DNA from: an uncultured Verrucomicrobiota bacterium | GTDB taxonomy: Bacteria > Verrucomicrobiota > Verrucomicrobiia > Palsa-1439 | Reading direction: 5' to 3' | Length of the DNA stretch: 64,000 nt | Assembly: GCA_964533295.1 (NCBI GenBank) | Contig: CAZHLM010000001.1 | Coordinates: 112,498-176,497, forward strand | In this document: positions 6,574-49,756 of the stretch, piece after piece | Layout of the letters: each line of letters opens with the position of its first letter | How positions within the stretch are numbered: the first letter of the stretch is position 1 | Position numbers and translations under genes: made by a program | Notes under the pieces: generated by a model | Told to the model about the DNA's origin: nothing | What the model saw: only the letters and a program-made list of their open reading frames with translations | Databases searched by the model: none

Positions 6574-6989
6574 CGGAGGTCTCCGTGTGGCCGATGGTCA
6601 GTCGCTTGAACGAGGTGGTAAGTCTCCAAAGCGAATACGATGCTCAGAAAAGCAGCACAAATCTTACATAGGATAAGTTTTCTGAGGAGGCTATCGCTGT
6701 CGGTCCAGCGCCGATTTTGGTGTCGGATTTGGGTTGGTGGGTGTGTCGGCTTTGATCGGATCAAGCCAGACGTCGAGGCCAGCCAGGTTCGAGGAATTTA
6801 GTTATGGCGACCTCAGTTTGGGCGATCCAAAGGCACGCTGGGTGGTGGATAAGCCCCAGAACCTGTTCACACGCTCTTGGCGCCATAGGCTATTTGGCGC
6901 GCGGTCACACCCGCCACATAGCGCTGGTTCGCCATCGAGCTTTTCTATAGACTGCATCACAGGAAAGGACATTCGGAAGGTTGCGTGAA

Positions 6990-7010: not shown

Positions 7011-7150
7011 AATCCCTGTTTCAGCTTGCGCCTACTCGCCGGCTGCTTGGCTCGGGTCGATTCGCAAGCTCAGGAGTGGCGCTTGTCATTCAATGCCCCA
7101 CGGCAAGTTCAACGTGTGGGGTTGTTCACAGGCCCCGGCAAAGGAATTCC

Positions 7151-9793
7151 ATGGCTGCACAAATCAAATCTCTCAGCCTGCCTGTTCAGGGCATGTCATG
7201 CGCTTCGTGCGTTTCACATGTGGAGGGCGCGCTCAAGGAACTGCCCGGCGTTGAAAGCGTGGTCGTCAACCTGGGCACCAACAAGGCTGCGCTCAATTTT
7301 GATCCGACCCGGGTCACCCTGACCGACCTGGCCCGCGCGGTCGACGAGGTGGGATATCGGGTGCCGACCTCTGAACTGGCGCTAGACGTGCGCGGCATGA
7401 CCTGCGCCTCGTGCGTGGCCCATGTCGAAGGGGCGCTGAAGGGGGTCGAAGGGGTCACCGGGGCAGTCGTGAACCTGGGTCTGGGCACGGCCCGCGTCAC
7501 CTACATCCCCGGCCTGGTCTCGATCAACGCCATGAAGCGGGCCGTGCGCGAGGTCGGCTACGAAGCCCAGGAGCGAAGCGAAGGCGTCGACGCGCTCGAC
7601 CGCGAGCGGCAGGCGCGCGAGGCCGAGATCCGGCGCCAGGGCCGCAACCTGCTCATCGCCGGGCTGGTTGGCCTGGTCGTCATGATCGGCACTTTCTACG
7701 ACATGCTTGGCCCCCTTAAGGTGTTGGTGCCGGCGTGGCTGGCCCAGAAGTGGGTCATCGGCCTGCTGACCACGCCCATCGTCTTCGGCCCCGGTCTGCA
7801 GTTCTTCGTCAACTCTTGGCGAGGGCTTAGGCACGGCGTGACCGACATGAACCTGCTGTACGCCACCGGCATTGGCGCCGCCTACGGCATCGCCGTCATC
7901 AACACCCTCTTCCCGGAGGCCGGCTTCGGGGGTGAGGGGGCCACCTTCTTCGAGAGCGCCGCCCTGCTGACGGCCTTCATCATCCTCGGCCGCTGGCTGG
8001 AGGCCCTCACCCGCGGGCGCACGTCCGAGGCCATCCGCAAGCTCATGAAGCTTCAGCCCAAGATCGCGCGCGTCGTCCGGGATGGAAAAGAACTGGAGAT
8101 CCCGGCGGAGGAGGTCGAGATCCACGACTTGATCCTGGTCCGCCCGGGCGAAGGCATCCCCGTGGACGGCCAGGTCGTCGACGGCTATTCCGCCGTCGAT
8201 GAGTCGATGCTGACCGGCGAGAGCCTGCCGGTGGAGAAGAAGGCCGGCGACCTCGTCATCGGCGGGACGCTCAATAAGACCGGCGCATTCCGCTTCTCGG
8301 CGACCCGCGTGGGCAAAGAGACGGCCCTGGCCCAGATCATCAAGCTGGTGGAGGACGCCCAGGCCAGCAAGGCGCCGATCCAGAAGCTGGCGGACTGGGT
8401 GGCCGGGCACTTCATCCTGGGCGTTCACGTGCTGGCGGTGCTGGTCTTCGTCTTCTGGTTCTTCTACGGCTTTGGGCGCTTCTTCGACCCGAATTCCAGC
8501 TTCATCCTCTCACCCTACAAGCTGGGCGAGATCGGCGTGTTCGGGTTCTCGCTCCTGCTGTCGGTGACGGTGCTGGTGATCTCCTGCCCGTGCGCCGTCG
8601 GCCTGGCCACCCCGAGCGCGATCATGGCTGGCGCCGGCAAGGCCGCCGAGCACGGCGTGCTCTTCAAGGGCGCCGAGGCCATCGAGAACGCCAGCAAGCT
8701 GCAGGTGATCGTCTTTGACAAGACCGGGACCCTCACCCAGGGCCAGCCGAGCGTGACGGATGTCGTGGTCAGTGATCAGTGGGCAGGGGTCAGTAACTCT
8801 GATCACTCTCCACTACCCACTGACCACCTGCTCCGCTACGCGGCCAGCGCCGAGAAGCACAGCGAGCATCCGCTGGGCGAGGCCATCCTCAAAGGAGCGG
8901 AGGCACGCGGCCTGACGCTGCCCACGCCCGAACAGTTCATTTCGATCCCCGGGCATGGCGTCGAGGCCCGAATTGAAGGCCGCGCCGTTCTGCTGGGCAA
9001 CCGCAAGCTGATGCGCGAGCGCGGCGTGGACTTCGGCGCGTTGCTGACGAGGGCGGAGGCACTGGAGGCCGATGGCAAGACGGCCATGTTCCTGGCCGTG
9101 GACGGCGCGCCGGCCGGCCTGATCGCCGTGGCCGACACGCTCAAGGAGTACTCGGCCGAGGCGGTTGCGCACCTGCACCGGCTGGGCATCCAGGTGGCCA
9201 TGATCACGGGTGACAACGCCCGCACCGCGCAGGCGATCGCCCGGCAGGTGGGCATCGACCGGGTGCTGGCGGAAGTCCTGCCCCAGGACAAGGCCGAAGA
9301 AGTCAAGAAGCTCCAAGCCGCCCCCGCTGGAAAGCGCGGGGCAGGCGGCCACAAGGTGGCCATGGTCGGGGATGGCGTCAACGATGCGCCGGCCCTGGCC
9401 CAGGCCGATGTCGGCCTGGCCATCGGCTCCGGGACCGACGTGGCCAAGGAAACCGGCGACGTCATCCTGATCAAGGACGACATCCGCGACGTGGTCGTGG
9501 CCCTGGAAGTGGCCCAGGCCACCATGCGCAAGGTCAAGCAGAACCTGTTCTGGGCCTTCGTCTACAACCTGCTGGGCATCCCGCTGGGGGCCGGGCTGTT
9601 CTACCCCTTCGTGTCGCTGATCATCAGCCCGGAGCTGGCCGGCCTGATGATGGCCGTCAGCTCGGTCTCGGTCACCCTGAACACGTTACTCCTCAAGCGC
9701 TTCCGGCCATCCATCCGCCGCGACGATGCGCCCTGGCCAGGCCCCCGCCAGGCACACCCAGGCCTGGCGCCGGCGCCAGCCAGCGGCGACTGA
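7151..9793 (+). CDS. copA: copper-translocating P1B-type ATPase with two N-terminal HMA domains
   Basis: two GMSCASC/GMTCASC HMA motifs, CPC TM motif ([11 protein letters not shown]), [21 protein letters not shown], MxxSS; AAGGA ribosome-binding site before the ATG at 7151. Confidence 0.9.
8765..8827. repeat. palindromic mini-element (terminal inverted repeats GTGGTCAGTG / CACTGACCAC) inserted in frame within copA1
   Basis: sequence gtggtcagtgatcagtggg ... cccactgaccac adds about 10 aa ([19 protein letters not shown]) between DKTGT and SEHP compared with the copA3 paralog. Confidence 0.6.
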
Positions 9794-13405: not shown

Positions 13406-13498
13406 TTGACGGGCTTCACACGGTTTTCGGGAAGGCTTCACAAGTTCTTCACATGGCTCGGCTAGGGTAACGCATAGAAAGGATCTTCGGAGGTCAAC

Positions 13499-13938: not shown

Positions 13939-14619
13939 ATGGCCCAGACCATCCTCGTCGTGGACGACGAAGCCCAGATCGTGAAGGTCTTGCGCGGCTA
14001 CCTGGAGCAGGCCGGCTTCCGCGTGGTCACGGCCAGTGATGGGCCGACCGCCCTGGCCCAGGCCAAACGCGAAAAGCCGGACCTGGTACTCCTGGACCTG
14101 AGCCTCCCAGGGTTAGACGGCCTCGACGTCGCCCGGCGCCTGCGGGCCACATCCAACGTGTCCATCATCATGGTGACGGCGCGGGTCGAGGAGTCCGACC
14201 GCCTGGTCGGGCTGGAACTGGGTGCCGATGACTACGTCGTCAAGCCCTTCAGCCCGCGCGAGGTGGTGGCCCGCGTGCGAGCCGTGCTCCGGCGGACAGA
14301 AGCGCCGAGCGTCCCACAGATCATCCGGGCGGCCGACATCACCATCGACCTGACGCGGCACACGGTCGCCCGCAGCGATGACTCCATTGAGCTGACGCCG
14401 ACGGAGTTCGATCTGTTGGTTACGCTGGCGCGCGAGCCGGGCCGCGTTTTCACCCGCATGCAGTTGCTCGACGCCGCCCAGGGTGAGGCGTTTGAGGGCT
14501 ACGAGCGCACCGTGGACGCCCACATCAAGAACCTGCGCGCCAAGCTCGAACGTGATCCCAGGCAGCCCGAGTACGTCGTGACCGTGTTCGGCGTGGGTTA
14601 CAAGTTCGCAGACGGCTGA
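13939..14619 (+). CDS. OmpR/PhoB-family response regulator
   Basis: receiver domain (ILVVDDE, LVLLDLSLPGLDG) and winged-helix C-terminus (VFGVGYKF). Confidence 0.85.
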   Translation: MAQTILVVDDEAQIVKVLRGYLEQAGFRVVTASDGPTALAQAKREKPDLVLLDLSLPGLDGLDVARRLRATSNVSIIMVTARVEESDRLVGLELGADDYVVKPFSPREVVARVRAVLRRTEAPSVPQIIRAADITIDLTRHTVARSDDSIELTPTEFDLLVTLAREPGRVFTRMQLLDAAQGEAFEGYERTVDAHIKNLRAKLERDPRQPEYVVTVFGVGYKFADG

Positions 14620-14691: not shown

Positions 14692-16095
14692 ATGCGTCTC
14701 TTCGCCAAGCTCTTGCTCTCTTTCCTGGCCGTTGTCCTGGTAGGCGTGGCCGTGGTGTCGCTGCTGGCCAACCAGGCGGCGGCCAGCGAGGTGCACAGCT
14801 TCATGTTCCAGGGCGGCATGACGAGCGACGCCGGCCTGGCGCAGGAGTTGGCAGGCTACTATCGTGGTCGTGGCTCCTGGGAGGGCGTCCAGACACTGGT
14901 GAGCGCCGGTCTGGGGATGGGCGGCATGGCGGGGATGATGGGCCAGCAGCTCCTCGTCGCCGATGCGCGCGGCCAGGTCGTGGCCGACTCCGCCGGCCAG
15001 CGCGTAGGCCAGACCCTGAGCCAGGCCGAACTGTCAGGCGGCACCGCCATCGTCGTCGACGGCCAGCGCGCCGGCACGCTCGTCGCCGTGGGCGGCATGG
15101 GGATGGGCGAGATCAGGGGTGGCCCGGGGCAGGCTGACAGCGCCACGAACGATCTGTTAGGGCGCGTCAACCGGGCCATCTGGCTGGCGGCACTGGCGGC
15201 GGGCGGCGCTGCTCTCGTGGTCGGCGGCATTTTGGCCTATGGCCTCGTTCGACCGATCCGGCGCCTCATGGCTGCGACGGCCGTCATCGCCCGCGGCGAC
15301 CTGGCCCAGCGTGTCCCGGTCACGTCTCAAGATGAAATCGGCGACCTGGCGGCCGCGTTCAACGCGATGGCGGCCGACCTGCAGAAGGCTGAGCGCCTGC
15401 GGCAGGACATGATCGCGGATATTGCCCATGAGCTGCGCAACCCCCTGGCGGCCCTGCAAGGCAGCCTGGAAGCGGTGGTCGACGGGGTGCTGCCGCCCAC
15501 CCAAGAGACCCTGGCGCCGCTGCTCGATCAGACGCAATTGCTCGCGCGGCTGGTGAGCGACCTGCGCACGCTGGCCCTTGCCGACGCCGGGCAACTGCCT
15601 CTGGATCGCCTCTCCATGAACCCCGCGGATCTGGTCCGGTCGGTGGTCGCCCAATTCACGCCCCAGGCTCAAGCCAAGCACCTCACCCTGCGCGCCGATA
15701 TTCCTGTCAGCCTGCCGACCCTCTCGCTCGATCCCCAACGCATCGCCCAGGTCCTCGGCAACCTGCTCGGCAATGCCATTCGTCACACGCCCGCAGGGGG
15801 AGTGATCAGTGTTCAGGGTTCAGTATCCAGTGAGCGCCCGGAAATCACTCTGAACACTGGGCACTATTTACGGATCACTGTTACTGACACCGGCTCCGGT
15901 ATCCCGCCTGAGGCTGTGCCGCATGTCTTCGACCGCTTCTATCGCGTCGACCGCGGGCGCTCGCGCAGCGAAGGCGGGACCGGCCTCGGCCTGGCCATCG
16001 CCAAACAACTGGTGCAGGCGCACGGCGGGCACATCTGGGTGACCAGCCAGCCCGGCCAGGGCACGCAAGTTTCGTTTACCCTGCCTCTCAACTGA
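14692..16095 (+). CDS. sensor histidine kinase (periplasmic Met/Gly-rich sensor, HAMP, HisKA, HATPase)
   Basis: IADIAHELRNPLAAL H-box, DTGSGIP and GGTGLGLAI G-boxes; sensor loop with GMGGMAGMMGQQ. Confidence 0.85.
   Translation: MRLFAKLLLSFLAVVLVGVAVVSLLANQAAASEVHSFMFQGGMTSDAGLAQELAGYYRGRGSWEGVQTLVSAGLGMGGMAGMMGQQLLVADARGQVVADSAGQRVGQTLSQAELSGGTAIVVDGQRAGTLVAVGGMGMGEIRGGPGQADSATNDLLGRVNRAIWLAALAAGGAALVVGGILAYGLVRPIRRLMAATAVIARGDLAQRVPVTSQDEIGDLAAAFNAMAADLQKAERLRQDMIADIAHELRNPLAALQGSLEAVVDGVLPPTQETLAPLLDQTQLLARLVSDLRTLALADAGQLPLDRLSMNPADLVRSVVAQFTPQAQAKHLTLRADIPVSLPTLSLDPQRIAQVLGNLLGNAIRHTPAGGVISVQGSVSSERPEITLNTGHYLRITVTDTGSGIPPEAVPHVFDRFYRVDRGRSRSEGGTGLGLAIAKQLVQAHGGHIWVTSQPGQGTQVSFTLPLN
15802..15890. 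repeat. palindromic mini-element of the CAGTGA/TCACTG family inserted in frame within the kinase ATP-binding domain
   Basis: gtgatcagtgttcagggttcag ... actctgaacactg ... cactgttactgacac; stem cagtgttcagggt pairs with actctgaacactg; encodes ISVQGSVSSERPEITLNTGHYLRITVTD. Confidence 0.55.
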
Positions 16096-16165
16096 TCCAC
16101 TCCGCCTTCAACGGCCAAAATCATAAGCCATTTCGCCTGTTCCACACTAGGTCGATTAGCGCTTT

Positions 16166-16220
16166 CCAAATGCCCGCCGGTGGATACACTTCTATGTGTG
16201 CCTAGTAGTTGGGCATTTGG
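16166..16220. promoter_or_regulatory. 10-bp perfect inverted repeat CCAAATGCCC ... GGGCATTTGG flanking a 35-nt lower-GC spacer upstream of copA2
   Basis: read directly; lies 24-78 nt upstream of the copA2 start. Confidence 0.3.
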
Positions 16221-16243: not shown

Positions 16244-18925
<2,682 letters not shown>

Positions 18926-20357: not shown

Positions 20358-21023
20358 ATGACGCACGCTTCCCGGCCTGCCACCATCCTCTTCGCCGACC
20401 TGTGCGGCTTCACGGCCCTGACCGAGACACACGGCGACGACGACGCGGCCGACATCGTGGCCCGGCTGTGCCGTCTGACGCAGGCCGCGCTGGCCGGCGA
20501 CGCCCGTCTGGCCAAATCCATCGGTGACGCCGTCATGGTTGTGGCCGGCGAGCCGGCGTCGGCTATCACGACCGTGTTTCAGCTCGCCGCCGCAGTCCAG
20601 GCGGAGCCGGGCTTCCCGGCCCTGCGCGCCGGCCTGCACGCCGGCCCGGTGGTCGAACGGGACGGCGACTATTTCGGCGCCACGGTGAACGTGGCCGCCC
20701 GCGTCGCCGCGTATGCGCGCTCAGACCAGATCCTGTGCACGGAGGCGGTGGCGGACGCGGTCCGCCCGCTCGCCATCGCCGGGGTGACCGGCCTGGGCGA
20801 GGTGTGGCTCAAGAACGTCTCCCATCCGGTCAAGCTCTTCACGCTGGAAGACTCGCGCCGTGCCGATGCTGCCGCCGAGTTCGACCCGGTGTGCCGGATG
20901 CGGCTTGACCTCGAGCGGGCCCTGGCCCGCCTGCCTTATGGGGGCCGGGTGTACCACTTCTGCTCATTCAACTGCGCCCAGAGATTTGCACAAACGCCGG
21001 AAGCCTATATCCCGACCAAGTAG
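20358..21023 (+). CDS. class III nucleotidyl cyclase domain fused to C-terminal YHS/TRASH metal-binding domain
   Basis: ILFADLCGFT and KSIGDAVM metal-Asp motifs, ATVNVAARV; C-terminal DPVCRMRLD ... GGRVYHFCSFNCAQRF. Confidence 0.7.
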   Translation: MTHASRPATILFADLCGFTALTETHGDDDAADIVARLCRLTQAALAGDARLAKSIGDAVMVVAGEPASAITTVFQLAAAVQAEPGFPALRAGLHAGPVVERDGDYFGATVNVAARVAAYARSDQILCTEAVADAVRPLAIAGVTGLGEVWLKNVSHPVKLFTLEDSRRADAAAEFDPVCRMRLDLERALARLPYGGRVYHFCSFNCAQRFAQTPEAYIPTK

Positions 21024-21064
21024 CCCTTTTTTCTCTCCTTGCGCCATTCTGCGCCCGGCCCAAT

Positions 21065-21078
21065 GCGCCAAATGGCGC
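21065..21078. promoter_or_regulatory. GCGCCAAATGGCGC palindromic motif (copy 1), about 100 nt upstream of the YVTN gene
   Basis: exact 14-mer; further copies at 50860-50873 and 24706-24719 (13/14), variants at 41832-41845 and 35339-35352. Confidence 0.35.
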
Positions 21079-21179
21079 TCGCCGATTGCCTTTCCCTGAT
21101 GCTAGTGTAAGGACCGGCTGGGGACCTTTTGGGCCATGTTTGCTGGCTTCAAATTCAATACAACAAGGAGAGTATTTCC

Positions 21180-22277
21180 ATGAAACACAGTAAAGGGATC
21201 CGTGTGGGCCTGGCGCTCAGCATCGGCCTGGCGTTGCTCCTGGCCGCGTGCAGTGGGGCGACCTCCGATGGCCCTGCGCCCGCCGTTTCGCAGAAGACGG
21301 CGCCTGGCGCCGTCTGGGTGGCCGATGAATATGGCAACAGCATCACGGTGATTGATGCTGCCAGCAACCGGGTGGTCGCCACCCTCACCGGCATCGAAGC
21401 GCCTCATAATCTCCAGGTCGCGCCGGATGGCAAGAGCGTCTGGGTGGTGAGCGGGCACGACTCATTTGCCGCGATGATTGATACCGCCACGTACAAGGTG
21501 CATGGCACCGTGATGACGGGCCAGGAGCCGGCCCACATCGTCCTGGCCCCGGATGGCAAAACCGCATATGCCACCAACGGCGACGAGGACAGCGTCACCG
21601 CGATCGACGTCGCCACGATGCAAGCCATCGCTACCATCCCGGTGGGGATGTATCCGCACGGCCTGCGCCCCAGCCCGGATGGGAAGTGGGTATACGTCGC
21701 CAATGCGAAGGACACGACTCTCAGCGTGATCGACACGTCAACCCACACCAAAGTGACCGACATCGAAGTGGGACAGAAGCCGGTACAGGTCGGCTTCTCG
21801 CCGGATGGCAAGGTCGTCTATTTCTCGCTCAACGCTGAGAATGCCGTCGGCAAAGTGGACGTGGCGACGCGCCAACTCGTCGGCAAGGTGGACGTCGGCG
21901 TTGGCCCGATCCAGGTCTTTGTGACGCCGGACGACAAGTACGTGCTCGCCGCTAACCAGGGAACACAAGATAATCCCAGCACGACCGTTTCCATCATCGA
22001 CACGGCGACGTTCACGGTGGTGGGCACCGTGGAGACCGGCAAAGGCGCACACGGCATCGTGATCGACCCATCCAGCCGCTACGCCTACATCACCAACATC
22101 TACGGGAACGACGTGGCGGTGTTGGATATCCCGACACGCAAAGTGGTCGCGACCATCCCCAGCGGCGCTGGTCCGAATGGTATCAGTTACTCACCCCAGG
22201 CGCCTGCTTCGGCGTCGGCCCCCGAGATCGACCTTGACTTGCCGGAAATGGATGACATGTCCGGCATGCAGCCATAA
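21180..22277 (+). CDS. YVTN-family beta-propeller repeat lipoprotein
   Basis: lipobox LLAACSG; repeated YVANAKDTTLSVIDTSTHTKV / YVLAANQGT ... SIIDTATFTVV 40-residue repeats; AAGGAG ribosome-binding site. Confidence 0.7.
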   Translation: MKHSKGIRVGLALSIGLALLLAACSGATSDGPAPAVSQKTAPGAVWVADEYGNSITVIDAASNRVVATLTGIEAPHNLQVAPDGKSVWVVSGHDSFAAMIDTATYKVHGTVMTGQEPAHIVLAPDGKTAYATNGDEDSVTAIDVATMQAIATIPVGMYPHGLRPSPDGKWVYVANAKDTTLSVIDTSTHTKVTDIEVGQKPVQVGFSPDGKVVYFSLNAENAVGKVDVATRQLVGKVDVGVGPIQVFVTPDDKYVLAANQGTQDNPSTTVSIIDTATFTVVGTVETGKGAHGIVIDPSSRYAYITNIYGNDVAVLDIPTRKVVATIPSGAGPNGISYSPQAPASASAPEIDLDLPEMDDMSGMQP

Positions 22278-22311: not shown

Positions 22312-22377
22312 GAAAGCGCCGTTCCCCGGAAGGCTACGCCGATTGGCGTATGCCCCACCAGGCGGAACGGCGCTTTC
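22312..22377. promoter_or_regulatory. nested palindrome: outer 14-bp inverted repeat GAAAGCGCCGTTCC/GGAACGGCGCTTTC enclosing TACGCCGATTGGCGTA
   Basis: read directly; lies between the YVTN gene and the DUF2933 gene; could be a terminator/attenuator or a binding site. Confidence 0.3.
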
Positions 22378-22424
22378 GTTTGGCAGGCCTTCGGTGTTAG
22401 GGTACGAGTTGACAGGAGGCGCTG

Positions 22425-22667
22425 ATGAATTCAAGACAAGACTTCAGCCTGGGTCGCTGGCTGCGCTCGCGCACCGGGCTGGTGTTTCTCGTGTTCTCGG
22501 GCATCGCGGCGTTTTACCTGCTGACAGAACACACCGCCCACTTCTTCGGCATCCTGCCCTACGCGTTGCTCTTGCTGTGTCCGCTGCTGCATTTGTTCAT
22601 GCACAGCCGGCACGACGGTCTTAACGGTCATGCCGATCATCAGCCGCCCTCGGGGGAGAAGAAATGA
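22425..22667 (+). CDS. DUF2933-like small membrane protein
   Basis: 80 aa; CPLLHLFMHSRHDG motif typical of DUF2933; ATGA overlap with the downstream methyltransferase. Confidence 0.5.
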   Translation: MNSRQDFSLGRWLRSRTGLVFLVFSGIAAFYLLTEHTAHFFGILPYALLLLCPLLHLFMHSRHDGLNGHADHQPPSGEKK

Positions 22668-23320
22668 ACATCAATTCCCCCGCCTACGGGCTGTGGCCGC
22701 TCGTCTTCATAAACACGGCGGTCTTTATCGTCTTCGCCTTCAGCTTCACCAAGCCGCGCACCAGCCGAGACTGGCGCTCCTTCGGCGCGTTCTCGGCCTT
22801 CCTGGTGGCGCTGTTCACGGAGATGTACGGCTTCCCGCTGACGATTTACCTGCTCTCGGGCTGGCTGGGCAGCCGGATCCCGGGCCTGGACCTGCTCTCT
22901 CATAATGCCGGACACCTATGGCAGACACTCCTCGGCTGGAAGGGCGACCCGCACTTCACCCCCATCCATTGGTTGAGCGATGCGCTCATCGGCGGCGGGT
23001 TCGTCCTCATCGGTGCGGCCTGGGACGTGTTGTATAAGGCGCAGCGCGCACACCAACTGGCTATCGCCGGCCCGTATGCTTACCTGCGGCACCCCCAGTA
23101 CGTCGGCTTCATCGTGATCATGCTCGGCTTCCTCATCCAGTGGCCGACTATCACTACGCTGGTCATGTTTCCGATCCTGGTGTTCATGTATGTGCGGCTG
23201 GCGCGGCACGAGGAGCGCGAGGCATGGGCGGAGTTCGGCCAGGCGTATTCCGAGTATGCGGCCCGCACGCCGGCTTTCCTCCCGCGCCGCCGGCAGCCTG
23301 CCCCCGGAGGTGCTTTATGA
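22664..23320 (+). CDS. isoprenylcysteine carboxyl methyltransferase (ICMT)/phospholipid methyltransferase family membrane protein
   Basis: GPYAYLRHPQYVGFIV motif, multiple TM helices. Confidence 0.7.
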   Translation: MNINSPAYGLWPLVFINTAVFIVFAFSFTKPRTSRDWRSFGAFSAFLVALFTEMYGFPLTIYLLSGWLGSRIPGLDLLSHNAGHLWQTLLGWKGDPHFTPIHWLSDALIGGGFVLIGAAWDVLYKAQRAHQLAIAGPYAYLRHPQYVGFIVIMLGFLIQWPTITTLVMFPILVFMYVRLARHEEREAWAEFGQAYSEYAARTPAFLPRRRQPAPGGAL

Positions 23321-23814
23321 CCGTCGGACGTTTTCTCGTCATCGCCGGCATCGCGGCCCTCGTCGCCGGCACGGCCTGGCTGACCCTGAGCGGCGCCGAG
23401 GAGCGTACCGTGCGGCAGGTGATGGAGGAGGTTCAGACGGCGGCCCTCCAGGGCCTGAACCGCAAGAACCCGAACGCGCTCGACAGCTACTTCGCCTCTG
23501 AGGCCGAGGGCGCCGTGGCCGCCGGCCTGGCGCAGACCCGGCAGGCGTACCAAGACTTTGTTGACCAGCTTCCCAGCACCAACGCAGTCCAGTTCCATTC
23601 GTTCGACATCCAGGCGCTGGAGGTTCATGAGGAGGCTCGCCTGGCTAAAGTCACCTATCGCCTGCACTTCAGCGTCTTGAAGAACGGCCAGCCCATCTAC
23701 AGCGCCCGGGTGACCCAGGACCTGGCCTTTCGCAAGACCCCGCGCGGCTGGCGCATCTCGGGCGGCGACGCGCCGCAACTGGAAGACGTGACCGGAACCT
23801 GGCCGCCGCGTTGA
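23317..23814 (+). CDS. membrane-anchored NTF2-like hypothetical protein
   Basis: N-terminal TM helix then a soluble domain of about 130 aa; 4-nt overlap with the upstream gene. Confidence 0.35.
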   Translation: MTVGRFLVIAGIAALVAGTAWLTLSGAEERTVRQVMEEVQTAALQGLNRKNPNALDSYFASEAEGAVAAGLAQTRQAYQDFVDQLPSTNAVQFHSFDIQALEVHEEARLAKVTYRLHFSVLKNGQPIYSARVTQDLAFRKTPRGWRISGGDAPQLEDVTGTWPPR

Positions 23815-23824
23815 AGAGGGCAGG

Positions 23825-24436
23825 ATGAAACTCAACGCGCTCGAATTTGCGCTGATGAACAACCCCGTCCGCGCGGCCTCTCAGTGGTGGATTGAGACGC
23901 CGCTGCTGATCGGCCCGCGCGGCTCACTGGCCGGTCGGCAAGTTCTGGAGATCGGCTGCGGGCGCGGCGTAGGCATCGAAATTCTGCTCGCACGCGGCGC
24001 GGCGCAGGTCACCGGCTTCGACCTTGACCCGAAGATGATTTCCCTGGCCAGAAAGCACGTGGCGAAACATGGTGCGCGCGCCCGCGTCTTCGTCGGGGAC
24101 GCCGAGGCGATTGATGCGCCCAATTCCAGTTTCGACGCGGTCGTGGACTATGGCATCCTCCATCACATCCCCAACTGGCAGAAGGCGCTCGGCGAGATTG
24201 CGCGCGTGCTTCGAAGTCCCGACCCGGCGTCGGGGAGGCCAGGTGGCACGTTCTACTTTGAAGACCTGCTCAAGGGCTTCGTCTCGGCGTGGCCGGTGCG
24301 GGACCTCTTCGACCATCCCCAGGCGACCCAGTTCTATGGTCGTGAGCTCCGCGCAGGGCTGGTGGCGGCTGGCCTGCGCGTGACGCGGTGGCGGCAGTTG
24401 GGCGAGTGGGGGGTCATGGGGGCAGCGGTAAAATAG
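23825..24436 (+). CDS. class I SAM-dependent methyltransferase
   Basis: VLEIGCGRGVG motif I, DAVVDYGILHH motif. Confidence 0.7.
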   Translation: MKLNALEFALMNNPVRAASQWWIETPLLIGPRGSLAGRQVLEIGCGRGVGIEILLARGAAQVTGFDLDPKMISLARKHVAKHGARARVFVGDAEAIDAPNSSFDAVVDYGILHHIPNWQKALGEIARVLRSPDPASGRPGGTFYFEDLLKGFVSAWPVRDLFDHPQATQFYGRELRAGLVAAGLRVTRWRQLGEWGVMGAAVK

Positions 24437-24450
24437 CCGGCGACGACGCT

Positions 24451-24660
24451 ATGCCAGAAACGAGCCAGTCTGTGCCCGTCCCCGGGCCCGAGGCCATCAC
24501 CGCCTGCGGTGGCAAGCTCAAGGACCCTAGCCTGTACCCCAGCGCGGAGTATCGTGGACGGCGGGTCTATTTCTGCACGCGCGGCTGCCTGCGCGCCTTT
24601 GAAGCGGACCCCGACCGCTTCATGGCCGGCGAGATCGAGCACCCCGTCACGGCCGATTGA
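24451..24660 (+). CDS. stand-alone YHS/TRASH domain protein
   Basis: ITACGGKL ... YRGRRVYFCTRGCLRAFEADPDRF. Confidence 0.55.
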   Translation: MPETSQSVPVPGPEAITACGGKLKDPSLYPSAEYRGRRVYFCTRGCLRAFEADPDRFMAGEIEHPVTAD

Positions 24661-24812
24661 TCCCGAAGATCCGCACGAGCCCTCATCTGGGCTTAATCTC
24701 CCCCTCCGCCAAATGGCGCATTCTCAAACAGGCTAAACGCCTCTCACAGTTTTCGTCCCGCCCCGCTAGAGTCATCCTTGAAGCCAGACACCGATACCAA
24801 GGAGTGACTCAT

Positions 24813-25103
24813 ATGGAACACGTCCCGCATGCCTCTGAAACCGCCGACCGCCCACGGCGCGTCCCGCCCATCGTCTGGTTCCTCGGCCTTGGCCTGGTTG
24901 CTGCGTTGATCGCGATCTTCTTGTTCAACGTGGCCGTCGATACCGTCGTGTATTACTGCTTAATCGCCTTGATGGTGGGGAGTCACTTCTTTATGCACGG
25001 CTCGCACGGCGGGCATGCCGGTCATGGGCAACCAGGCACACCGACCGAAGCGGCCCGCTCAGATAAGGACCAGCACGCCGGCCACTCCGGCGGCTGCCAC
25101 TGA
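24813..25103 (+). CDS. DUF2933-like membrane protein with His-rich C-terminal tail
   Basis: MVGSHFFMHGSHGGHAGHG ... HAGHSGGCH; AAGGAG ribosome-binding site; GCCAAATGGCGC motif about 95 nt upstream. Confidence 0.5.
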   Translation: MEHVPHASETADRPRRVPPIVWFLGLGLVAALIAIFLFNVAVDTVVYYCLIALMVGSHFFMHGSHGGHAGHGQPGTPTEAARSDKDQHAGHSGGCH

Positions 25104-25130
25104 CCTCTTGTCGCCCCGAAGGAGGACCCC

Positions 25131-25457
25131 ATGAGCACCGACTGTCACGTTGAGCCGTTGTGGAAGACCGCCACCCCCGAAGAACTGCAGCAGGGGACGT
25201 CGGCGCTGCTGTCCGTCCAGGGCCTGGGCTGTCCGAACTGCGCCCTACGGGTCCGCAATAGCCTGCTCTCCGTCCGTGGCGTGGTGGAAGCCCACGTCGT
25301 CCATGAGATCGGCATCGCCGAGGTGGTGTTCAACCCCAACCTGACCAACGTCTTGGTCCTGATCGAGGCCGTCGCCCGGGCGGGGAACGACGGGCATCAC
25401 GCCTACAGCGCCCGGCTGATCGATGGACCGGGAGTGGAACGTGACCATCCGCGTTGA
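25131..25457 (+). CDS. HMA-like (ferredoxin-fold) metal-binding domain protein with atypical GCPNC site
   Basis: LSVQGLGCPNCALRVRNSLLSVRGVVEAHV resembles an HMA domain with a non-canonical metal site. Confidence 0.5.
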   Translation: MSTDCHVEPLWKTATPEELQQGTSALLSVQGLGCPNCALRVRNSLLSVRGVVEAHVVHEIGIAEVVFNPNLTNVLVLIEAVARAGNDGHHAYSARLIDGPGVERDHPR

Positions 25458-26646
25458 GCGCTATGACGCCATCATCGCCGGCGCCGGCCCGGCCGGGGCG
25501 ACCGCGGCGTATTTCCTTGGCGAAGCCGGCCGGCGCGTGCTGGTCCTGGAGAAGGACATCCTGCCGCGCTACAAGCCGTGCGGCGGCGGGCTCTCGGCCC
25601 ACATGCTGACGAAGATGTTCCCCTTCTCGTTCGACCCGGTCGTCGAAACACGCATCCAGGCCGTCACCTACGCGCTCGGCCGGCACTCCGTCACCATCCC
25701 GATCCCGGGCCTCGGCGTTCGGACGGTGATGCGCGATCGCTTCGACACGCATATCCTGGCGCACGCCCGGGCCGAGGTGCGCTCCGGCGTCGTCGTCCGT
25801 AAGGTGACGGAGACGGCCGAGGCGGTGACCGTCGAAACGACCACGGGCGAAGCTTTCACGGCGCGCTACCTGATCGGTGCGGACGGCGCGAACTCGGTCG
25901 TCGCCCATTCGCTGGGCCTGCGCCGGGGCAGGCGCAAGAACCTGGCGGCCGCCCTTGAGGCCGAAGTGCCCGCCTCCCCCGAGGCGCTGCGCCGCTTCGG
26001 CCCGGCGCTGTGGGTCCTCCTGGGCGAGATCCGCTTCGGGTACGCGTGGATTTTCCCGAAAGCCGATCATCTCTCGGTGGGCATCGCCGCGCTGCGCCCC
26101 AGGCCCGGCGAACTGCAAGCCAGGCTGGCCGACATGGCGGCCCGCTATGGCCTTTCGCTCGATCAGGCGCAGGTGAGGGGCCATCCCATCCCGCTGTACA
26201 CCCGCCGCGAGCGCATCGCCACCGCGCGCACGCTGCTGGCCGGCGACGCCGCCGGGCTGGTCGACCCGCTCAGCGGCGAGGGCATCCGCCTGGCCATCAA
26301 GAGCGGCAAACTGGCCGCGCAGGCTATCCTGAGCGAGCGGCCCGGCTCGTATCCGGAGCTGGTCCATCGCGAGATCGGCCTGTGCCACACGATTGGCCTG
26401 GGCGTGGCCTGGCTGTTCTATCACTTCCCGAGCGCCTGTTTCTGGTTGGGCACGCGTAACCCCTTTGCCACCCGGGCCTTCATGGCCATGCTCGCCGACC
26501 GCGCCGACTACCCGCAGGTAATCCTGCAAATCGTCGGCACCCTGCCGATTTTCCTGCTCACTGAAACCATAGCCGCGCTGGCGGGCCTGATCGGTGGGCG
26601 GGAGCGCCGCGAGCGCGTGCGGGCCGCCGTGTACCCAGGTGCCTGA
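25423..26646 (+). CDS. FAD-dependent oxidoreductase, geranylgeranyl reductase family
   Basis: DAIIAGAGPAGATAA dinucleotide-binding motif, GDAAGLVDPLSGEGI. Confidence 0.7.
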   Translation: MDREWNVTIRVERYDAIIAGAGPAGATAAYFLGEAGRRVLVLEKDILPRYKPCGGGLSAHMLTKMFPFSFDPVVETRIQAVTYALGRHSVTIPIPGLGVRTVMRDRFDTHILAHARAEVRSGVVVRKVTETAEAVTVETTTGEAFTARYLIGADGANSVVAHSLGLRRGRRKNLAAALEAEVPASPEALRRFGPALWVLLGEIRFGYAWIFPKADHLSVGIAALRPRPGELQARLADMAARYGLSLDQAQVRGHPIPLYTRRERIATARTLLAGDAAGLVDPLSGEGIRLAIKSGKLAAQAILSERPGSYPELVHREIGLCHTIGLGVAWLFYHFPSACFWLGTRNPFATRAFMAMLADRADYPQVILQIVGTLPIFLLTETIAALAGLIGGRERRERVRAAVYPGA

Positions 26647-26647
26647 G

Positions 26648-28339
<1,692 letters not shown>

Positions 28340-28362
28340 ACCTCAGCCAAGGGAGAAAACGC

Positions 28363-28596
28363 ATGAGCAAAATCGCCAAGTCAACGACTTCGAAAAACAC
28401 ACGGACCCGCCGCGAGTGGCCGGTCGTCGTGTATGTCTGGATCATCGGGCTGGGGCTGCTCAGTTATCTCTTCGTCGGGGAGGTCGTCCTCGGCGGGCAG
28501 CCTCATCCCTGGCACTGGGTGGCCGCGGTCGCCGGCGCCGTCGTCGGCTACTTCGTCGGCTGGCAGTGGTATCGTTGGCGTGGGGACATCATTTGA
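28363..28596 (+). CDS. small membrane protein, hypothetical
   Basis: 77 aa, two TM helices, AGGGAG ribosome-binding site. Confidence 0.3.
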   Translation: MSKIAKSTTSKNTRTRREWPVVVYVWIIGLGLLSYLFVGEVVLGGQPHPWHWVAAVAGAVVGYFVGWQWYRWRGDII

Positions 28597-28647
28597 GCAG
28601 CGGACCCACCGGCGCCGCAATCACTCTCACGAACGGAAGGAAACCTT

Positions 28648-28845
28648 ATGCATCAAGATCCGGTCTGCGGCAAACGGCTCAATCGGGGCAAGGCGCACGC
28701 CATCGTCGAGCACCAGGGTGTGAGCTATTTCCTGTGCTGTCCGCTCTGCCAGGCGGAGTTTGAGCGCGAGCCGCGGAGATACGCCCGGCCCGAGCTGGGC
28801 GAGAAGACCAGGAAGAAAGAACACCAGCCCTACCGCCGGTTGTAG
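28648..28845 (+). CDS. stand-alone YHS/TRASH domain protein
   Basis: DPVCGKRL ... HQGVSYFLCCPLCQAEF. Confidence 0.6.
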   Translation: MHQDPVCGKRLNRGKAHAIVEHQGVSYFLCCPLCQAEFEREPRRYARPELGEKTRKKEHQPYRRL

Positions 28846-28916
28846 GCTTGAGGCGACGACAAGATGGACAGGGCGCCGGGACTGGTGAGGGATTTCGCAG
28901 CGTAACCAGAACACGT

Positions 28917-29410
28917 ATGGGCCTGAACAGCATCTCGTTGGAACTTGACGCCCAGATGTTCCTGCGCCTGCTGGTCGCGATGGTGCTCGGCGCGCTGGTG
29001 GGCTATGAGCGCGAGCGCGCGGGCAAGCCGGCCGGGGTGCGGACGCACGGCATGGTCAGCCTGGGTGCAGCGCTGTTCGCGGTCGTGTCGCTGCATGGGT
29101 TCGGCAGCGCGGGCGACCCGGCCCGCGTGGCGGCCCAGATCGTCACCGGCATCGGCTTCCTCGGCGCGGGCGCGACACTTGCACCTGCGCTGCAAGTGCA
29201 GGTGTCCTGCACGAGCGCGGCAGCATTCACGGCCTGACCACCGCCGCGAGCCTGTGGGTCACGGCGGCCATCGGTCTGTCCGTCGGCGTCGGCATGGTGC
29301 TCATGTCGGTGGCGACGGCGGCCCTGGTCTTCCTGCTTCTGCGCTTTGGCCCGCGCCCCAGGCTCAGAACCGAGGCTAGCGACACCGAGAAGCAACTCTC
29401 AGGAGAATGA
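28917..29410 (+). pseudogene. mgtC: MgtC/SapB-family gene disrupted by a 35-nt palindromic insertion (frameshift)
   Basis: LVGYERERAGKPAGVRTHGMVSLGAALF ... GIGFLGAGA in one frame, the conserved GLTTAASLWVTAAIGLSVG continues in another frame after acttgcacctgcgctgcaagtgcaggtgtcctgca. Confidence 0.6.
29177..29211. repeat. 35-nt palindromic insertion within mgtC (contains hairpin GTGCAGG-tgt-CCTGCAC)
   Basis: read directly; length not a multiple of 3; removing it restores the MgtC frame. Confidence 0.5.
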
Positions 29411-33681: not shown

Positions 33682-33750
33682 TGGTCCCTCCTGCCGGGTA
33701 CGCCAAATTATAGGCGCATGCGCCAAATTGCGGTATGTGTCTCAGTCAAT

Positions 33751-35302
33751 GGTGTAAATGGATTGAGTGCAACCTGAAGGTGCCAGAGTTTAGTCAGTGG
33801 TCGTGAGCTCGCTCCTGAAAGTCAGAAACGACATCATGTGAAGCGCCGCGCCCACAGCCGGCGAGCGCGCCCGCAGGCCGGGCCCCGGTCAAGGTGGAGC
33901 GAGCGCGCGAGCTGGGCCGCCCCCTGGGGCGGCGCGCGCTCGACGACCTTGACCGGGTGGCCGGAGGGTGCCGCCTCGCGCGGCGGGCGCCGGCGCGAAC
34001 CGGTCAGCGCACAGGCGCCAAGGCCGGAGCAATCATGAGCGCGCCCGCGTGCGGGTCCAAAAGCCGCTGCATGCTCGCTTGGCTGAAGTAGCGGCGCTCA
34101 ATGGCCCACTCGTCCGCCAGTTCCAACAGGACCATGCCGGTGAGACGCAGCACGGCCGGGTCATTCGGAAAGACCTGCACCACGTCCGTGCGGCGCTTGA
34201 TCTCCCGATTGACGCGTTCTAAGACGTTGGTGGAATAGAGCCGGGTCCAGTGTTCGGGCGGGAACGTCAGATAGGCCAGTACATCGTCTTCGGCCGTCCG
34301 TAACAGCGCGGCGGCTTTGGGCCAGCGCGTCTGCATCCCGCGCGCCACTTCGGCCAGCTGTTGACCAGCCGCCTCCCGATTGGGCTGGGCAAAAATCGTG
34401 CGGACCAGGGCCGCCACGACGGCCTTATCGGCGTGCGGGATATGGGCCAGCAGATTGCGCATAAAGTGCACGCGACAGCGCTGCCAGGTGGCCCCGGTCA
34501 AGACCTGAGCAATGGCCGCTTTCAGGCCTTCGTGGGCGTCACTAATGACTAACTGAACGCCGGCCAGACCTCGACCGACGAGACTACGCAAAAACTCGCT
34601 CCAGAAGGCTTGTTCTTCGCTCGCTCCCAACGCCAGGCCCAACACCTCGCGTTCGCCGGTCTCTCGCACACCGACCGCCACCACCAGGGCTTTACTGACA
34701 ATCCGCTGATTGGCACGTACTTTCACGTAGACCGCATCTAGCCACATATAGGGATAGGCCCCGCTCAAAGGTCGTTGCCGAAAGGCCGTCACTTGCTCAT
34801 CGAGCCCCTGGCACAGGCGCGACACCTTGGACTTGTCGATCCCACTCAGGCCGAGGGCTTGCACCAGATCGTCCACTTTGCGGGTGCTCACCCCGGCCAC
34901 ATACGCTTCTTGAATGACGGCCACCAGGGCCTGCTCCGTCCGCCGACGCGGCTCCAGCAAGCTTGGAAAGTAACTCCCCTGGCGGAGTTTGGGGATCCGT
35001 AACTGGAGTTCCCCCACGCGCGTTTCCAACGGCCGTTCGCGATAGCCGTTGCGCTGGGTGGTGCGCGCCGGGCTGCGCTCGTACTTCCCCGCCCCAATCT
35101 GCTGTTCGGCTTCCAATTCGATCAACTGCTGCAGTAGCCACTCCAACGCCGGCCGCAGGGCCTCCCCATCCAACGTCAGGCCCATCTTGCGTAGGTGCTC
35201 ATTCAGTGCGATAGTCAATTCGGTCATCGGGTGCTCCTGTTGCGATGTGGTAGTCACTTCAGGTAGCACTCGATGACTCGTTTTGTCAAATCCGATTTAC
35301 AC
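33751..35302. mobile_element. IS256-family insertion sequence
   Basis: transposase gene flanked by imperfect inverted repeats GGTGTAAATGGATTGAGTGCAACCTGAAG (left) and revcomp GGTGTAAATCGGATT ... GAGTGCTACCTGAAG (right); no clear target-site duplication. Confidence 0.65.
34004..35227 (-). CDS. IS256-family (Mutator-type) transposase
   Basis: 407 aa with the DDE region of IS256 transposases (YMWLDAVYVKVR ... LVISDAHEGLKAAI ... RCRVHFMRN). Confidence 0.85.
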   Translation of the reverse strand: MTELTIALNEHLRKMGLTLDGEALRPALEWLLQQLIELEAEQQIGAGKYERSPARTTQRNGYRERPLETRVGELQLRIPKLRQGSYFPSLLEPRRRTEQALVAVIQEAYVAGVSTRKVDDLVQALGLSGIDKSKVSRLCQGLDEQVTAFRQRPLSGAYPYMWLDAVYVKVRANQRIVSKALVVAVGVRETGEREVLGLALGASEEQAFWSEFLRSLVGRGLAGVQLVISDAHEGLKAAIAQVLTGATWQRCRVHFMRNLLAHIPHADKAVVAALVRTIFAQPNREAAGQQLAEVARGMQTRWPKAAALLRTAEDDVLAYLTFPPEHWTRLYSTNVLERVNREIKRRTDVVQVFPNDPAVLRLTGMVLLELADEWAIERRYFSQASMQRLLDPHAGALMIAPALAPVR

Positions 35303-35939
35303 CACCTCTCAAGACATTATCAAATTGCGCATTCATCCTGCGCCTTTTGGCGCTTACGGCGGACGTGGGGGCCAAGTACCATCGACAGTCAGAGCGCGCC
35401 TTTGGAGGTGGCCATGTACGTTGTACCGTTGTACCTTTTCCTTTCGCTCCTGCCGATTGCCTGGTTGCTGAGGCGATCACGGAGGCGGCCTGCCGCTGCG
35501 CTGCGCCATGTGACGGTGAGCATGGGCCCGACCTCCAAGAGGGGGTAGCGATGAGCACACTGAACCGCATCCTCCTGGGGTTGGCGCTGCTGACCCTGAT
35601 TGGCGTGGCCGCGCTGGCCGACGGCGCAGTGGGTGGCGGCGCGGTCTATTGGGTCTTGCGTGGACAGTTGCGTCTGCCCTGGCGCCCGCTTTCACGGTGA
35701 ATGGCGCGCCCCTGGCCGTTACTCGCTCTGCCCCCGACACCGGTGCGCGGACTATGGCCCTTGGTTGGGCGCTGGCAGATATCCGCCGAGCGCTGGATTC
35801 TCGGCGCCAGCATGTTTGTACAGCGCTATTTCCTCCCCGACAGTGGGCAGATCCCGGTCAGTGAGGTGAACAGCCTCGCCAAAGCCGCCGGGTTTGAGGT
35901 GCGTGATTCGGTTGCCCTTTTGTCTTACAGGTTGTAAGA

Positions 35940-41663: not shown

Positions 41664-41925
41664 CTGTCAGGACGCTATCTTCAATTCAGTAGTTTGGGCC
41701 GATCCGATTGGAAAGCTGAGCCAACGCTCTATTACCATGCTGGCGTTCTCCGGCCTGATGGCCCGTTTGAGGTGAATTCAGTGGAAGGGTGGATCCTCTT
41801 GCGACATGCGCCGTTAAGCCCGTTCCAACGTGCGCCATTTGGCTCTTTCGGCCTTCATCCCCAACTCCTAAACTGAGGAGAGTTGTTGTTCATCCCTGAC
41901 GCGCGCGTCTCACGGGAGGCGGTTT

Positions 41926-44329: not shown

Positions 44330-44470
44330 CGAACCGCCGCTCTCCTGTTCGAAATCAGCCGCGCGCCATTTCGCCTGTGCCCGAACACGCCGCTTGGCGC
44401 TTGAAGTCCGCCCCCCCGCGCCCTACGATACAGAGGGGTAGCCCCATCGTCATGGACGGAGGGCTGACCA

Positions 44471-44685
44471 TGCTCGCCAGGCTGAAATCGCTACGGAAAA
44501 TCCAACGCGCAGACCGCTGTCCGGTCTGCGGTGAGTTCATCCCCGGCGCGGGTGTGGAACGCTACGGGAAACGCTTCTGCCGGACGTGGCACGCTGACTT
44601 CTATCGCCCGCCTCCGCCGTGGTGGCGGCGCTTGCGCTGGCCCGACGACGCCGGCGGGGGTGGCGGCGGAGGCTGCTGCGGCTAG
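44471..44685 (+). CDS. small Cys/Gly-rich protein with YHS/TRASH-like CxxC ... C ... H arrangement
   Basis: CPVCGEFIPGAGVERYGKRFCRTWHADFY then a GGGGGGGCCG tail; weak. Confidence 0.3.
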
Positions 44686-45852: not shown

Positions 45853-45975
45853 CGCCCCGTCCCGGTGAAGCGGATGAGCTTGCCCGCCTGGCGCGCCGTT
45901 GGCGGGCTGGCCGGCTTGCCCTCTCAATCACGTCCTGACGGGGTACCAGCCGAGCGGCTGCCCGGCGCGAGCCTC

Positions 45976-47973: not shown

Positions 47974-48155
47974 GGAAAACGTGATGACCTATCTGAATGA
48001 GAACTCCCCAACCCAGGTATCGCGATGACTCACCTGCGCCGTATTCGTTTCCCGTTCATGCCCCTCACCCCGCCACGCCCCGGTGAACGGCTCGTCATCG
48101 ACCTAGAGAAACTGATCAAGGGCGTCCTGTTCCAATGCAGCACGTGCGGCAGCAA

Positions 48156-49470: not shown

Positions 49471-49756
49471 TCCCCTGGCGCTGCTCGATCAGCGACGATG
49501 CTGCTGGAGACCAGGGCGGTTTTCTGTGATGAGTTCGGCATTTTATTTCCGATAATCAAATTTATCATTTAGTTGTGCCTAAATTAACGGCTTGCCGCGA
49601 ACTCGTCAATACGCCATTCCGCGTGCTCGACGCGGCCCGGTCGCCTGCAACAGCGGCGGGTAGATCAACACGCCATTGTGCCTGTTTGAAAACCGGCTAA
49701 ACGGCGCTAACGCTATCAGGCTGTGCGGCTTACCATGGTAAGCGATTGGATCGGCT

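Follow-up and report, generated by a model that had tools for sequence, protein, structure and literature searches.

A 64,000-nucleotide stretch of metagenomic DNA (contig CAZHLM010000001.1, positions 112,498 to 176,497; hereafter the window) carries, upstream of a series of metal-resistance genes, pairs of 14-bp mirror-symmetric boxes held at a fixed distance from the -10 element of the downstream promoter. The sequence statistics and the conservation of the boxes make it very probable that they are protein operators, which would define a metal-island regulon of at least 12 promoters. Their best explanation, to which we give a probability of about 0.6, is that they are class-II-like operator pairs of a LuxR/NarL-type regulator, probably acting as an activator of this regulon. 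A sequence-only reading of the window had singled out one 14-mer, GCGCCAAATGGCGC, and had proposed either the operator of a dimeric transcription factor or a small family resembling repetitive extragenic palindromic (REP) elements. The first proposal is supported by dyad-symmetric conservation, the independence of the two halves, a fixed and sense-oriented distance to the -10 element, and the conservation of the same design beside a candidate regulator elsewhere.

Paired dyads phased to the -10 element

The exact 14-mer occurs twice, at 21065-21078 and 50860-50873, as the sequence-only reading had it, and since base composition predicts 0.0016 exact copies in 64 kb, its view that not even one is expected by chance is sound. 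Copies with one mismatch lie at 24706-24719, 35340-35353 (minus orientation), 41832-41845 (minus orientation) and 49395-49408, and copies with two mismatches at 373, 21041, 33720, 20126 and 48671. The near-copies at 24706-24719 and 41832-41845 had been located correctly; the reverse variant placed at 35339-35352 exists but starts one base further on, and the TTTGGCGC core reported near ATPase 1 at 6895-6902 is found at 6893-6900. At up to two mismatches, the window holds 13 strand-hits, against a mean of 2.4 and a maximum of 5 in dinucleotide shuffles. Intergenic DNA makes up 11% of the window and contains 8 of the 11 distinct 14-mer sites (binomial estimate about 3e-6), as well as 20 of the 26 high-scoring boxes. 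Degenerate boxes that had not been noted before start at 349, 6887, 6911, 16125, 16149, 22336, 22360, 24730, 41808, 44363, 44387, 45362, 49611, 49670 and 49694. The copies at 20126, 48671 and 49395 were rejected as functional sites: they are coding (alpha/beta-hydrolase and Nramp genes) and have neither a properly spaced -10 nor a partner box. A literature search with the motif string returned unrelated primers only.

The boxes have a 5-4-5 geometry, with a core GCC-AWWT-GGC inside GCGCC-N4-GGCGC. Their consensus is nnGCC-AWWT-GGCnn, in which G3C4 and G11C12 are nearly invariant, and GCGCCAAATGGCGC is consensus-like and the best-preserved copy. In an 18-mer alignment of 23 boxes, G5 and C14 are invariant, C6 and G13 are at least 90% conserved, and the pattern is mirror-symmetric. 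The arms pair in 72% of positions across the boxes and in 73% when partners are shuffled, and the covariation score lies below the shuffled mean. Thus, the arms do not covary, which points to a protein site and not to a hairpin. The repeat finder detected no extended similarity around the copies beyond the two-box promoter module of about 40 bp, and it independently returned this bipartite module (38-nt family D11, inverted pair I11), with the palindrome extended to a second, weaker box. The 14-mer is indeed part of something larger, as the sequence-only reading had allowed for, namely a composite with a second box, a -35 and a -10; however, this composite is the architecture of a promoter rather than a mobile or selfish repeat. 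The intergenic boxes lack a downstream T-tract, and the one copy flagged by the terminator scan is that in coding sequence at 48671. Rfam gave no relevant match in the whole window at gathering thresholds or in the leader at 50850-51250 searched permissively, and there are no tRNAs in the window. A sigma-54 reading, in which TGGCGC would be a -24 element, was rejected by inspection because no consistent GC element is found at +10.

The boxes are paired 24 bp apart, centre to centre. The proximal box directly abuts a weak -35 (TTGnnn or weaker), from which a 17-bp spacer leads to a TAnnnT -10 element, 22-24 nt from the box. If TAnnnT is taken as -12 to -7, with starts deduced from the sequence, the boxes occupy about -49 to -36 (centre -42.5) and about -73 to -60 (centre -66.5). 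Twelve promoters have this design, 12 of 12 with TAnnnT at 22-24 nt and all facing the downstream gene, and a thirteenth, single box belongs to the Nramp gene; the list in the next section gives the twelve -10 hexamers in order.

Wider scans used a position weight matrix. Its training has no bearing on the tests for TAnnnT and for a partner box at 24 bp, nor on the scanning of other genomes; the partner test was run without the trained matrix, and the sequences of the other-genome loci were absent from matrix building. Among 64 offsets, only -24 gives two or more seeds a partner at up to five mismatches (3 seeds, background P = 0.008 per site). For boxes scoring at least 11, both strands considered, the offset to TAnnnT peaks at 23 (10 cases) and 24 (4 cases), with at most two cases at any other value. 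Composites of a box and TAnnnT number 12 in the window, 9 of them with a partner box, compared with a mean of 0.01 and a maximum of 1 in 200 dinucleotide shuffles. A generic sigma-70 consensus scan of the window finds 0 of the boxed promoters; their cores are therefore weak, which fits activator dependence. In the pair at 24706/24730, the good palindrome takes the distal position and the -10 is in phase with the weak proximal box, so that geometry matters more than box quality.

In the mechanism that we propose, a dimeric helix-turn-helix regulator would bind each box, the best candidate being the LuxR/NarL-type protein encoded at 44707-45408. At the proximal box it would recruit or stabilise RNA polymerase in the way of class II activators, such as LuxR at the lux box (-42.5), and it would turn on metal efflux and detoxification genes, its own operon and the downstream partner orf244 (orf, open reading frame). 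We consider this protein the likely binder on the grounds of co-localisation, co-conservation and matching site geometry, all of which are associations. With a little more reserve, we favour class II activation from -42.5, for which the strict phasing, the lack of overlap with core elements and the weak -35s argue.

Boxed promoters of the metal island

The window has 64% G+C and is also found in JGI 3300007072 (Ga0073932_1000889) and in ENA and Logan assemblies; homologues of its proteins are annotated as coming from Chloroflexota/Anaerolineae metagenome-assembled genomes. Its metal-resistance island is concerned above all with copper and encodes three P1B-type ATPases, a multicopper oxidase, a cupredoxin, and HMA and YHS proteins. 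It also encodes DUF2933 (two copies), DUF305, DUF2231, DUF4396, DUF326, Nramp, ZIP and MgtC, and, as regulators and signalling proteins, an OmpR-type regulator with its kinase, two adenylate cyclases (one YHS-fused) and the LuxR/GerE-type regulator. A megablast search of the island and of its insertion sequence (IS) against plasmids returned short ATPase and DUF2933 matches only, and none for the IS. The predicted promoters and the features tied to them are listed in window coordinates, the distal box before the proximal one.

349-362 (AGGCCATTCGGCGC) and 373-386 (GCGCCACACGGCGC), plus strand, -10 TAGACT at 410-415: box pair and promoter of the orf at 434-820.
6887-6900 (AGGCTATTTGGCGC) and 6911-6924 (CCGCCACATAGCGC), plus strand, -10 TAGACT at 6948-6953: promoter of copper ATPase 1 (7076-9793), which is followed by the multicopper oxidase operon.
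16125-16138 and 16149-16162, plus strand, -10 TACACT at 16185-16190: promoter of ATPase 2, a YHS/HMA P-type ATPase (16271-18925), followed by a cupredoxin, a hydrolase and a YHS-fused adenylate cyclase.
21041-21054 (GCGCCATTCTGCGC) and 21065-21078 (exact GCGCCAAATGGCGC), plus strand, -10 TAGTGT at 21103-21108: promoter of the YVTN/YncE beta-propeller gene (21180-22277).
22336-22349 (ACGCCGATTGGCGT) and 22360-22373, plus strand, -10 TAGGGT at 22398-22403: promoter of the DUF2933-ICMT-DUF4440-methyltransferase-YHS operon (22425-24660).
24706-24719 (CCGCCAAATGGCGC) and 24730-24743 (AGGCTAAACGCCTC), plus strand, -10 TAGAGT at 24767-24772: promoter of the operon at 24813-29237, with orf96 (a weak DUF2933 match), HMA, a flavin adenine dinucleotide (FAD) monooxygenase, ABC1 kinase, YHS and MgtC.
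33720-33733 (GCGCCAAATTGCG+G), plus strand: distal box of the ATPase 3 promoter, severed from its proximal partner by the IS.
33733-35320, minus strand: IS256-family element with a Mutator-type transposase (34004-35269).
35340-35353 (GCGCCTTTTGGCGC), plus strand, -10 TACCAT at 35377-35382: proximal box of the ATPase 3 promoter, for a small membrane orf (35414-35548) and P-type ATPase 3 (about 36183-38708).
41808-41821 (GCGCCGTTAAGCCC) and 41832-41845 (GCGCCATTTGGCTC), plus strand, -10 TAAACT at 41869-41874: apbC promoter, for an apbC/Mrp-type Fe-S carrier (41926-42990) and adenylate cyclase 2.
44363-44376 and 44387-44400 (ACGCCGCTTGGCGC), plus strand, -10 TACGAT at 44424-44429: promoter of the regulator operon, with a small Cys-rich orf (44452-44685) and the candidate regulator.
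44707-45408, plus strand: candidate cognate regulator, with a GerE/LuxR-type helix-turn-helix (HTH) and an N-terminal pseudo-receiver.
45338-45351 (distal, GTA-type, TGCGTAGTTCTACT) and 45362-45375 (proximal, ACGCCGCTCGGCGC), plus strand, -35 TTGTCG, -10 TACCTT at 45399-45404: promoter inside the 3' end of the regulator gene, driving SPW (45415), orf244 (45865-46599), DUF5676 and ZIP.
49611-49624, minus strand: single box of the Nramp promoter, core TTGACG-17-TAATTT with the -10 at 49581-49586, for the Nramp gene (48103-49470).
49670-49683 and 49694-49707 (CGGCTAAACGGCGC), plus strand, -10 TACCAT at 49731-49736: promoter of zinc-ribbon paralogue 1 (49757-50170).
50860-50873 (exact 14-mer, proximal, with no convincing distal box), plus strand, -35 TTGTGT, -10 TACCGT at 50897-50902: promoter of paralogue 3 (51201-51776).

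Together, the copies at 33720 and 35340 make up one operator. The IS between them is bordered at 33724-33732 and 35321-35329 by the 9-bp target duplication CAAATTGCG, and removing the element yields GCGCCAAATTGCGC-N9-GCGCCTTTTGGCGC, a normal box pair (23 bp start to start) ahead of the ATPase 3 operon. The IS sits exactly within the distal box; it has spared the proximal box and the core promoter. This insertion into an operator accounts for the 33720 copy abutting a divergent gene, the 'nuclease' of the sequence-only reading, and for the 35340 box having no adjacent partner. P-type ATPase 3 itself has CPD in place of the usual CPC in its transmembrane metal-binding motif, and its N-terminal region is rich in His and Met.

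Other features of the boxed operons deserve mention. In the Nramp promoter region (49540-49630), an AT-rich palindrome resembling Fur/Mur sites, ATAATCAAATTTATCATT (49552-49570), lies downstream of the -10; together with the box and the good core, it suggests dual metal control of the Nramp importer. The promoter at 50860 would give a leader of about 290 nt (50909-51200). A strong hairpin, GGACGGGCCCGAAC...GTTCGGGCCCGTCC (about 51122-51158), lies at its end, with ATTATT between the hairpin and paralogue 3, and the leader could be an attenuator or a small RNA. Three paralogues of unknown function stand here in tandem, at 49757-50170 (with an N-terminal zinc ribbon), 50325-50805 and 51201-51776, and their homologues adjoin regulator or ATPase genes in three other loci (L009, L018 and L019). 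The cyclase at 20358-21023 combines an adenylate/guanylate cyclase catalytic domain with a C-terminal YHS domain, and a second cyclase is encoded at 43007-44329; the presence of both in boxed operons hints at signalling from metal to cyclic adenosine monophosphate (cAMP).

The island also encodes an OmpR-type regulator (13939-14619) with a kinase (14692-16095), the regulator being a relative of heavy-metal response regulators that scores below the curated cut-off. Three direct repeats of CTTCACA at 13413-13453, the last two 11 bp apart (13436-13453), lie just upstream of a TAGGGT -10. This array, the only one of its kind in the window, precedes the operon of a zinc-ribbon gene, the OmpR-type regulator and the kinase, and CTTCACA-N4-CTTCACA is probably the OmpR-type regulator's own site.

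A candidate regulator and its conservation in Chloroflexota

The pseudo-receiver of the candidate regulator (residues about 8-50) aligns with NarL-type receivers, but with the acidic DD changed to Gly-Pro, the phospho-acceptor Asp changed to Cys, and the next loop deleted. The acceptor position is Cys or Cys-Cys in the close subfamily, and Ser, Ala or Val in more distant members. From its sequence, the regulator is a pseudo-receiver protein predicted to be unable to be phosphorylated at the usual Asp. Boxes stand on both sides of its gene, at its own promoter (44363/44387) and at the internal one (45338/45362). The small orf upstream (44452-44685) is Cys-rich and by eye YHS/TRASH-like, and neither it nor orf244 has a Pfam or NCBIfam match. 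The orf244 family (homologues P0121-P0240) is confined to Chloroflexota, with proteins of about 200 aa at 50-88% identity, always encoded after the regulator gene. The AlphaFold model of orf244 has a pLDDT (predicted local distance difference test score) of 75, and its weak fold matches in the PDB, to erythromycin esterase EreC (E = 0.17) and HopBA1, give weak hints only of the erythromycin-esterase/ChaN-like group.

The boxes follow the regulator into other genomes. Composites number 21 in 180 kb (11.6 per 100 kb) in the 15 loci with the closest regulator homologues, against 2 in 1.11 Mb (0.18 per 100 kb) in 70 loci with distant homologues and 2 in 450 kb (0.44 per 100 kb) in a GC-matched subset of the latter. 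The order of small orf, regulator and orf244 is kept in Chloroflexota loci L010-L024, L092 and L094, the last two being among the four loci found by a metagenome scan with the regulator. The most widely conserved copy is the promoter between regulator and orf244, found in at least 12 genomes with regulator identities of 40-71%, in the form [ATC(A/C)GTA-N4-TACGGAT]-N6-[nCGCC-N4-GGCGC]TTGTga-N17-TAtaCT, with the start codon a few nt further on. Some lineages translate these boxes as a C-terminal tail of the regulator, FSNSTE...RHxAL (window 45300-45408; alignment columns 240-281), while in L016 (protein P0017) the stop codon falls within the distal box. Because the boxes are coding in some lineages and overlap the stop in others, conservation acts at the DNA level. 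The idea that the distal motif TCAGTAATTCTACGGA is a peptide-driven artefact was rejected on account of this stop codon inside the motif.

Conservation extends to further promoters. The box pair at the regulator's own promoter is kept at the same place in L092, and orthologous boxed promoters precede ATPase 2/cupredoxin genes in L018 and L019 and paralogue 1 in L009 (a box pair), where a cytochrome-b cluster is boxed as well. In L018, from a more distantly related Chloroflexota metagenome-assembled genome, three boxed promoters (regions 14555-14566, 15411 and 16390) lack a distal GCC-type box and have instead a palindrome, TGACAAATGTCA, with a distance of about 28 bp to the centre of the box downstream; a second factor may bind there. 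In L010 (3330-3400) and L011 (6990-7030), the place of the box pair ahead of the small orf and regulator is taken by the direct repeats AGACTCAGC-N2-AGACTCAGC, followed by TAAAAT.

Gene content and sequence features allow us to speculate about the signal, which would be copper or a related metal; the Cys-bearing pseudo-receiver, the small Cys-rich protein or orf244 would then act as its sensor. It is tempting to go further, although we put this forward tentatively and as the less probable case: the Cys-bearing, phosphorylation-independent pseudo-receiver/GerE regulator, the co-transcribed small YHS/TRASH-like protein and orf244 could form an undescribed metal-sensing switch, specific to Chloroflexota, that senses copper directly and activates at least 12 promoters through tandem dyads 24 bp apart, with the YHS-fused cyclases linking metal stress to cAMP.

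Alternative explanations, related systems and significance

Several points weigh against activation of these promoters by the LuxR/NarL-type regulator. The sites on which the position weight matrix of the wider scans was trained come from the window itself. A spacing of 24 bp is about 2.3 helical turns and would place the two dimers on different faces of the DNA, which is unusual for cooperative activators. In L010, L011 and L012, the regulator's own promoter has no boxes and carries a direct-repeat motif instead. The loci with distant homologues keep the recognition helix SVRTVQ[ST]HL and have no GCC-type boxes, their conserved promoter having GTA-type half-sites, CGTA-N4-TACG; since the same helix goes with different half-sites, specificity is not simply read from the recognition helix. 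L010-L012, L015 and L017 contain genes for the OmpR-type regulator and its kinase as well as the LuxR-type gene. Finally, the two adenylate cyclases of the island make a CRP-type regulator encoded elsewhere in the genome a live alternative.

One possibility, which we hold to be improbable though deserving of attention, is that the same regulator at the same operators is a repressor. From -49 to -36 and -73 to -60, it could block contacts of sigma region 4 or of the C-terminal domain of the RNA polymerase alpha subunit, or loop the DNA, until metal releases it, as happens with most repressors of metal resistance. De-repression controls many metal-resistance operons, several boxed cores are reasonable (for example, TTGTGA-17-TATACT at the conserved orf244 promoter), and the Nramp core, TTGACG-17-TAATTT, would be good unaided, as suits an importer that is logically repressed while efflux is induced. 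However, the boxes never overlap the -35, the -10 or the start, and, in other genomes as in at least 12 promoters of the window, they keep their 22-24 nt to the -10; strict phasing of this kind is typical of activators that touch RNA polymerase. Moreover, most -35 hexamers are poor, in line with the failure of the consensus scan to find any boxed promoter.

It is also unlikely, in our judgement, that the operators are real and have another binder, be it the island's OmpR-type regulator or a CRP/FNR-type cAMP receptor encoded outside the window and responding to the two cyclases. CRP/FNR-family sites are 5-4-5 dyads near -41.5, and an FNR-type dyad there replaces a good -35, so that box form and position match; the cyclases within boxed operons and the co-occurrence of the OmpR-type pair, whose regulator scores as a relative of heavy-metal response regulators, would suit such a binder too. 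Yet the half-site is unrelated to TTGAT or TGTGA, and no CRP/FNR-type protein is encoded in the window or the related loci: Pfam scans of the window detect no cyclic-nucleotide-binding or CRP-like protein, and no CRP-like gene turned up when E. coli CRP was used as a tblastn query against the window and 1.4 Mb of related loci, searches that did not take in the rest of the genome. As for the OmpR-type regulator, the CopR/CusR copper box lies upstream of the -35 and controls copper ATPase and multicopper oxidase genes, and the island does encode a CopR-like regulator with a kinase. However, OmpR/PhoB-type sites are tandem direct repeats with a period of 10-11 bp, whereas our boxes are mirror-symmetric and not translational, a symmetry unfit for tandem winged-helix binding, and a separate direct repeat precedes the OmpR operon. 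In addition, L009, L014, L018, L020 and L092 have boxed promoters although the DNA retrieved for these loci contains no OmpR-type gene, and across genera a box pair is physically embedded in the LuxR-type gene.

The REP-like family of the sequence-only reading, or more generally a family of REP elements or miniature inverted-repeat transposable elements, or of transcribed hairpins acting as terminators or RNA-stability elements, is highly improbable: GCGCC-N4-GGCGC can fold into a 5-bp stem with a 4-nt loop and some copies lie just past a preceding stop codon (21041-21078 after 21023, for example), but the boxes lack arm covariation, similarity beyond the two-box module, T-tracts and Rfam matches, lie almost only upstream of genes, are phased to the downstream -10 and oriented toward the gene, and are kept at orthologous promoters in other genera.

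The proposed operator pairs of a LuxR/NarL-type activator have parallels in known systems. The RcsB box of Enterobacteriaceae is a 14-bp 5-4-5 pseudo-palindrome, TN(G/A)GAN4TC(T/C)NA, bound by a GerE-type HTH homodimer in crystal structures (PMC7913699). Our boxes share its length and geometry, and the candidate regulator its protein family. In contrast, the half-site is GCGCC here and TNRGA there, the pseudo-receiver has no phospho-acceptor Asp, and the boxes come in pairs 24 bp apart fixed at -42.5/-66.5, in a metal-resistance regulon of Chloroflexota. The lux box is a dyad centred at -42.5 and bound by an activating GerE-HTH protein (PMC3376562), and a dyad operator with this centre (inferred here), upstream of or overlapping the -35, is common to both systems. 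However, LuxR has an acyl-homoserine-lactone-binding N-domain and a single 20-bp dyad, whereas here two 14-bp dyads go with a receiver-like N-domain and no autoinducer system. A further parallel is offered by BldM and WhiI of Streptomyces, and SecR, which are described as joining a receiver-like domain without phospho-transfer residues to a GerE HTH that binds palindromes (PMC4125116, PMC13199381, PMC12632262). The atypical receiver with a GerE HTH is shared, while lineage, motif and metal regulon differ, as do the conserved partner orf244, the small Cys-rich orf and the Cys at the acceptor position in the close subfamily. How such pseudo-receiver response regulators switch is a recognised open question (PMC12632262), and the candidate regulator is one of them.

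The element thus belongs to a class of regulatory sites that is well understood elsewhere and whose regulons are uncharted in this phylum. As far as we are aware, there is almost no experimental knowledge of how Anaerolineae-type Chloroflexota control transcription, and our literature search on Chloroflexi copper or LuxR-type regulation returned nothing relevant. Our analysis shows how a DNA operator can pose as a conserved C-terminal peptide and how an IS insertion can split an operator. For a poorly studied phylum, it offers a concrete hypothesis made up of an operator sequence, a promoter geometry, a candidate regulator and its targets. The regulon would unite three P-type ATPases, a multicopper oxidase, the YVTN, DUF2933 and ICMT genes, HMA and YHS proteins, apbC, Nramp and two adenylate cyclases, and it would give a metal-stress context to DUF2933, DUF5676, SPW, orf244 and the zinc-ribbon paralogues.

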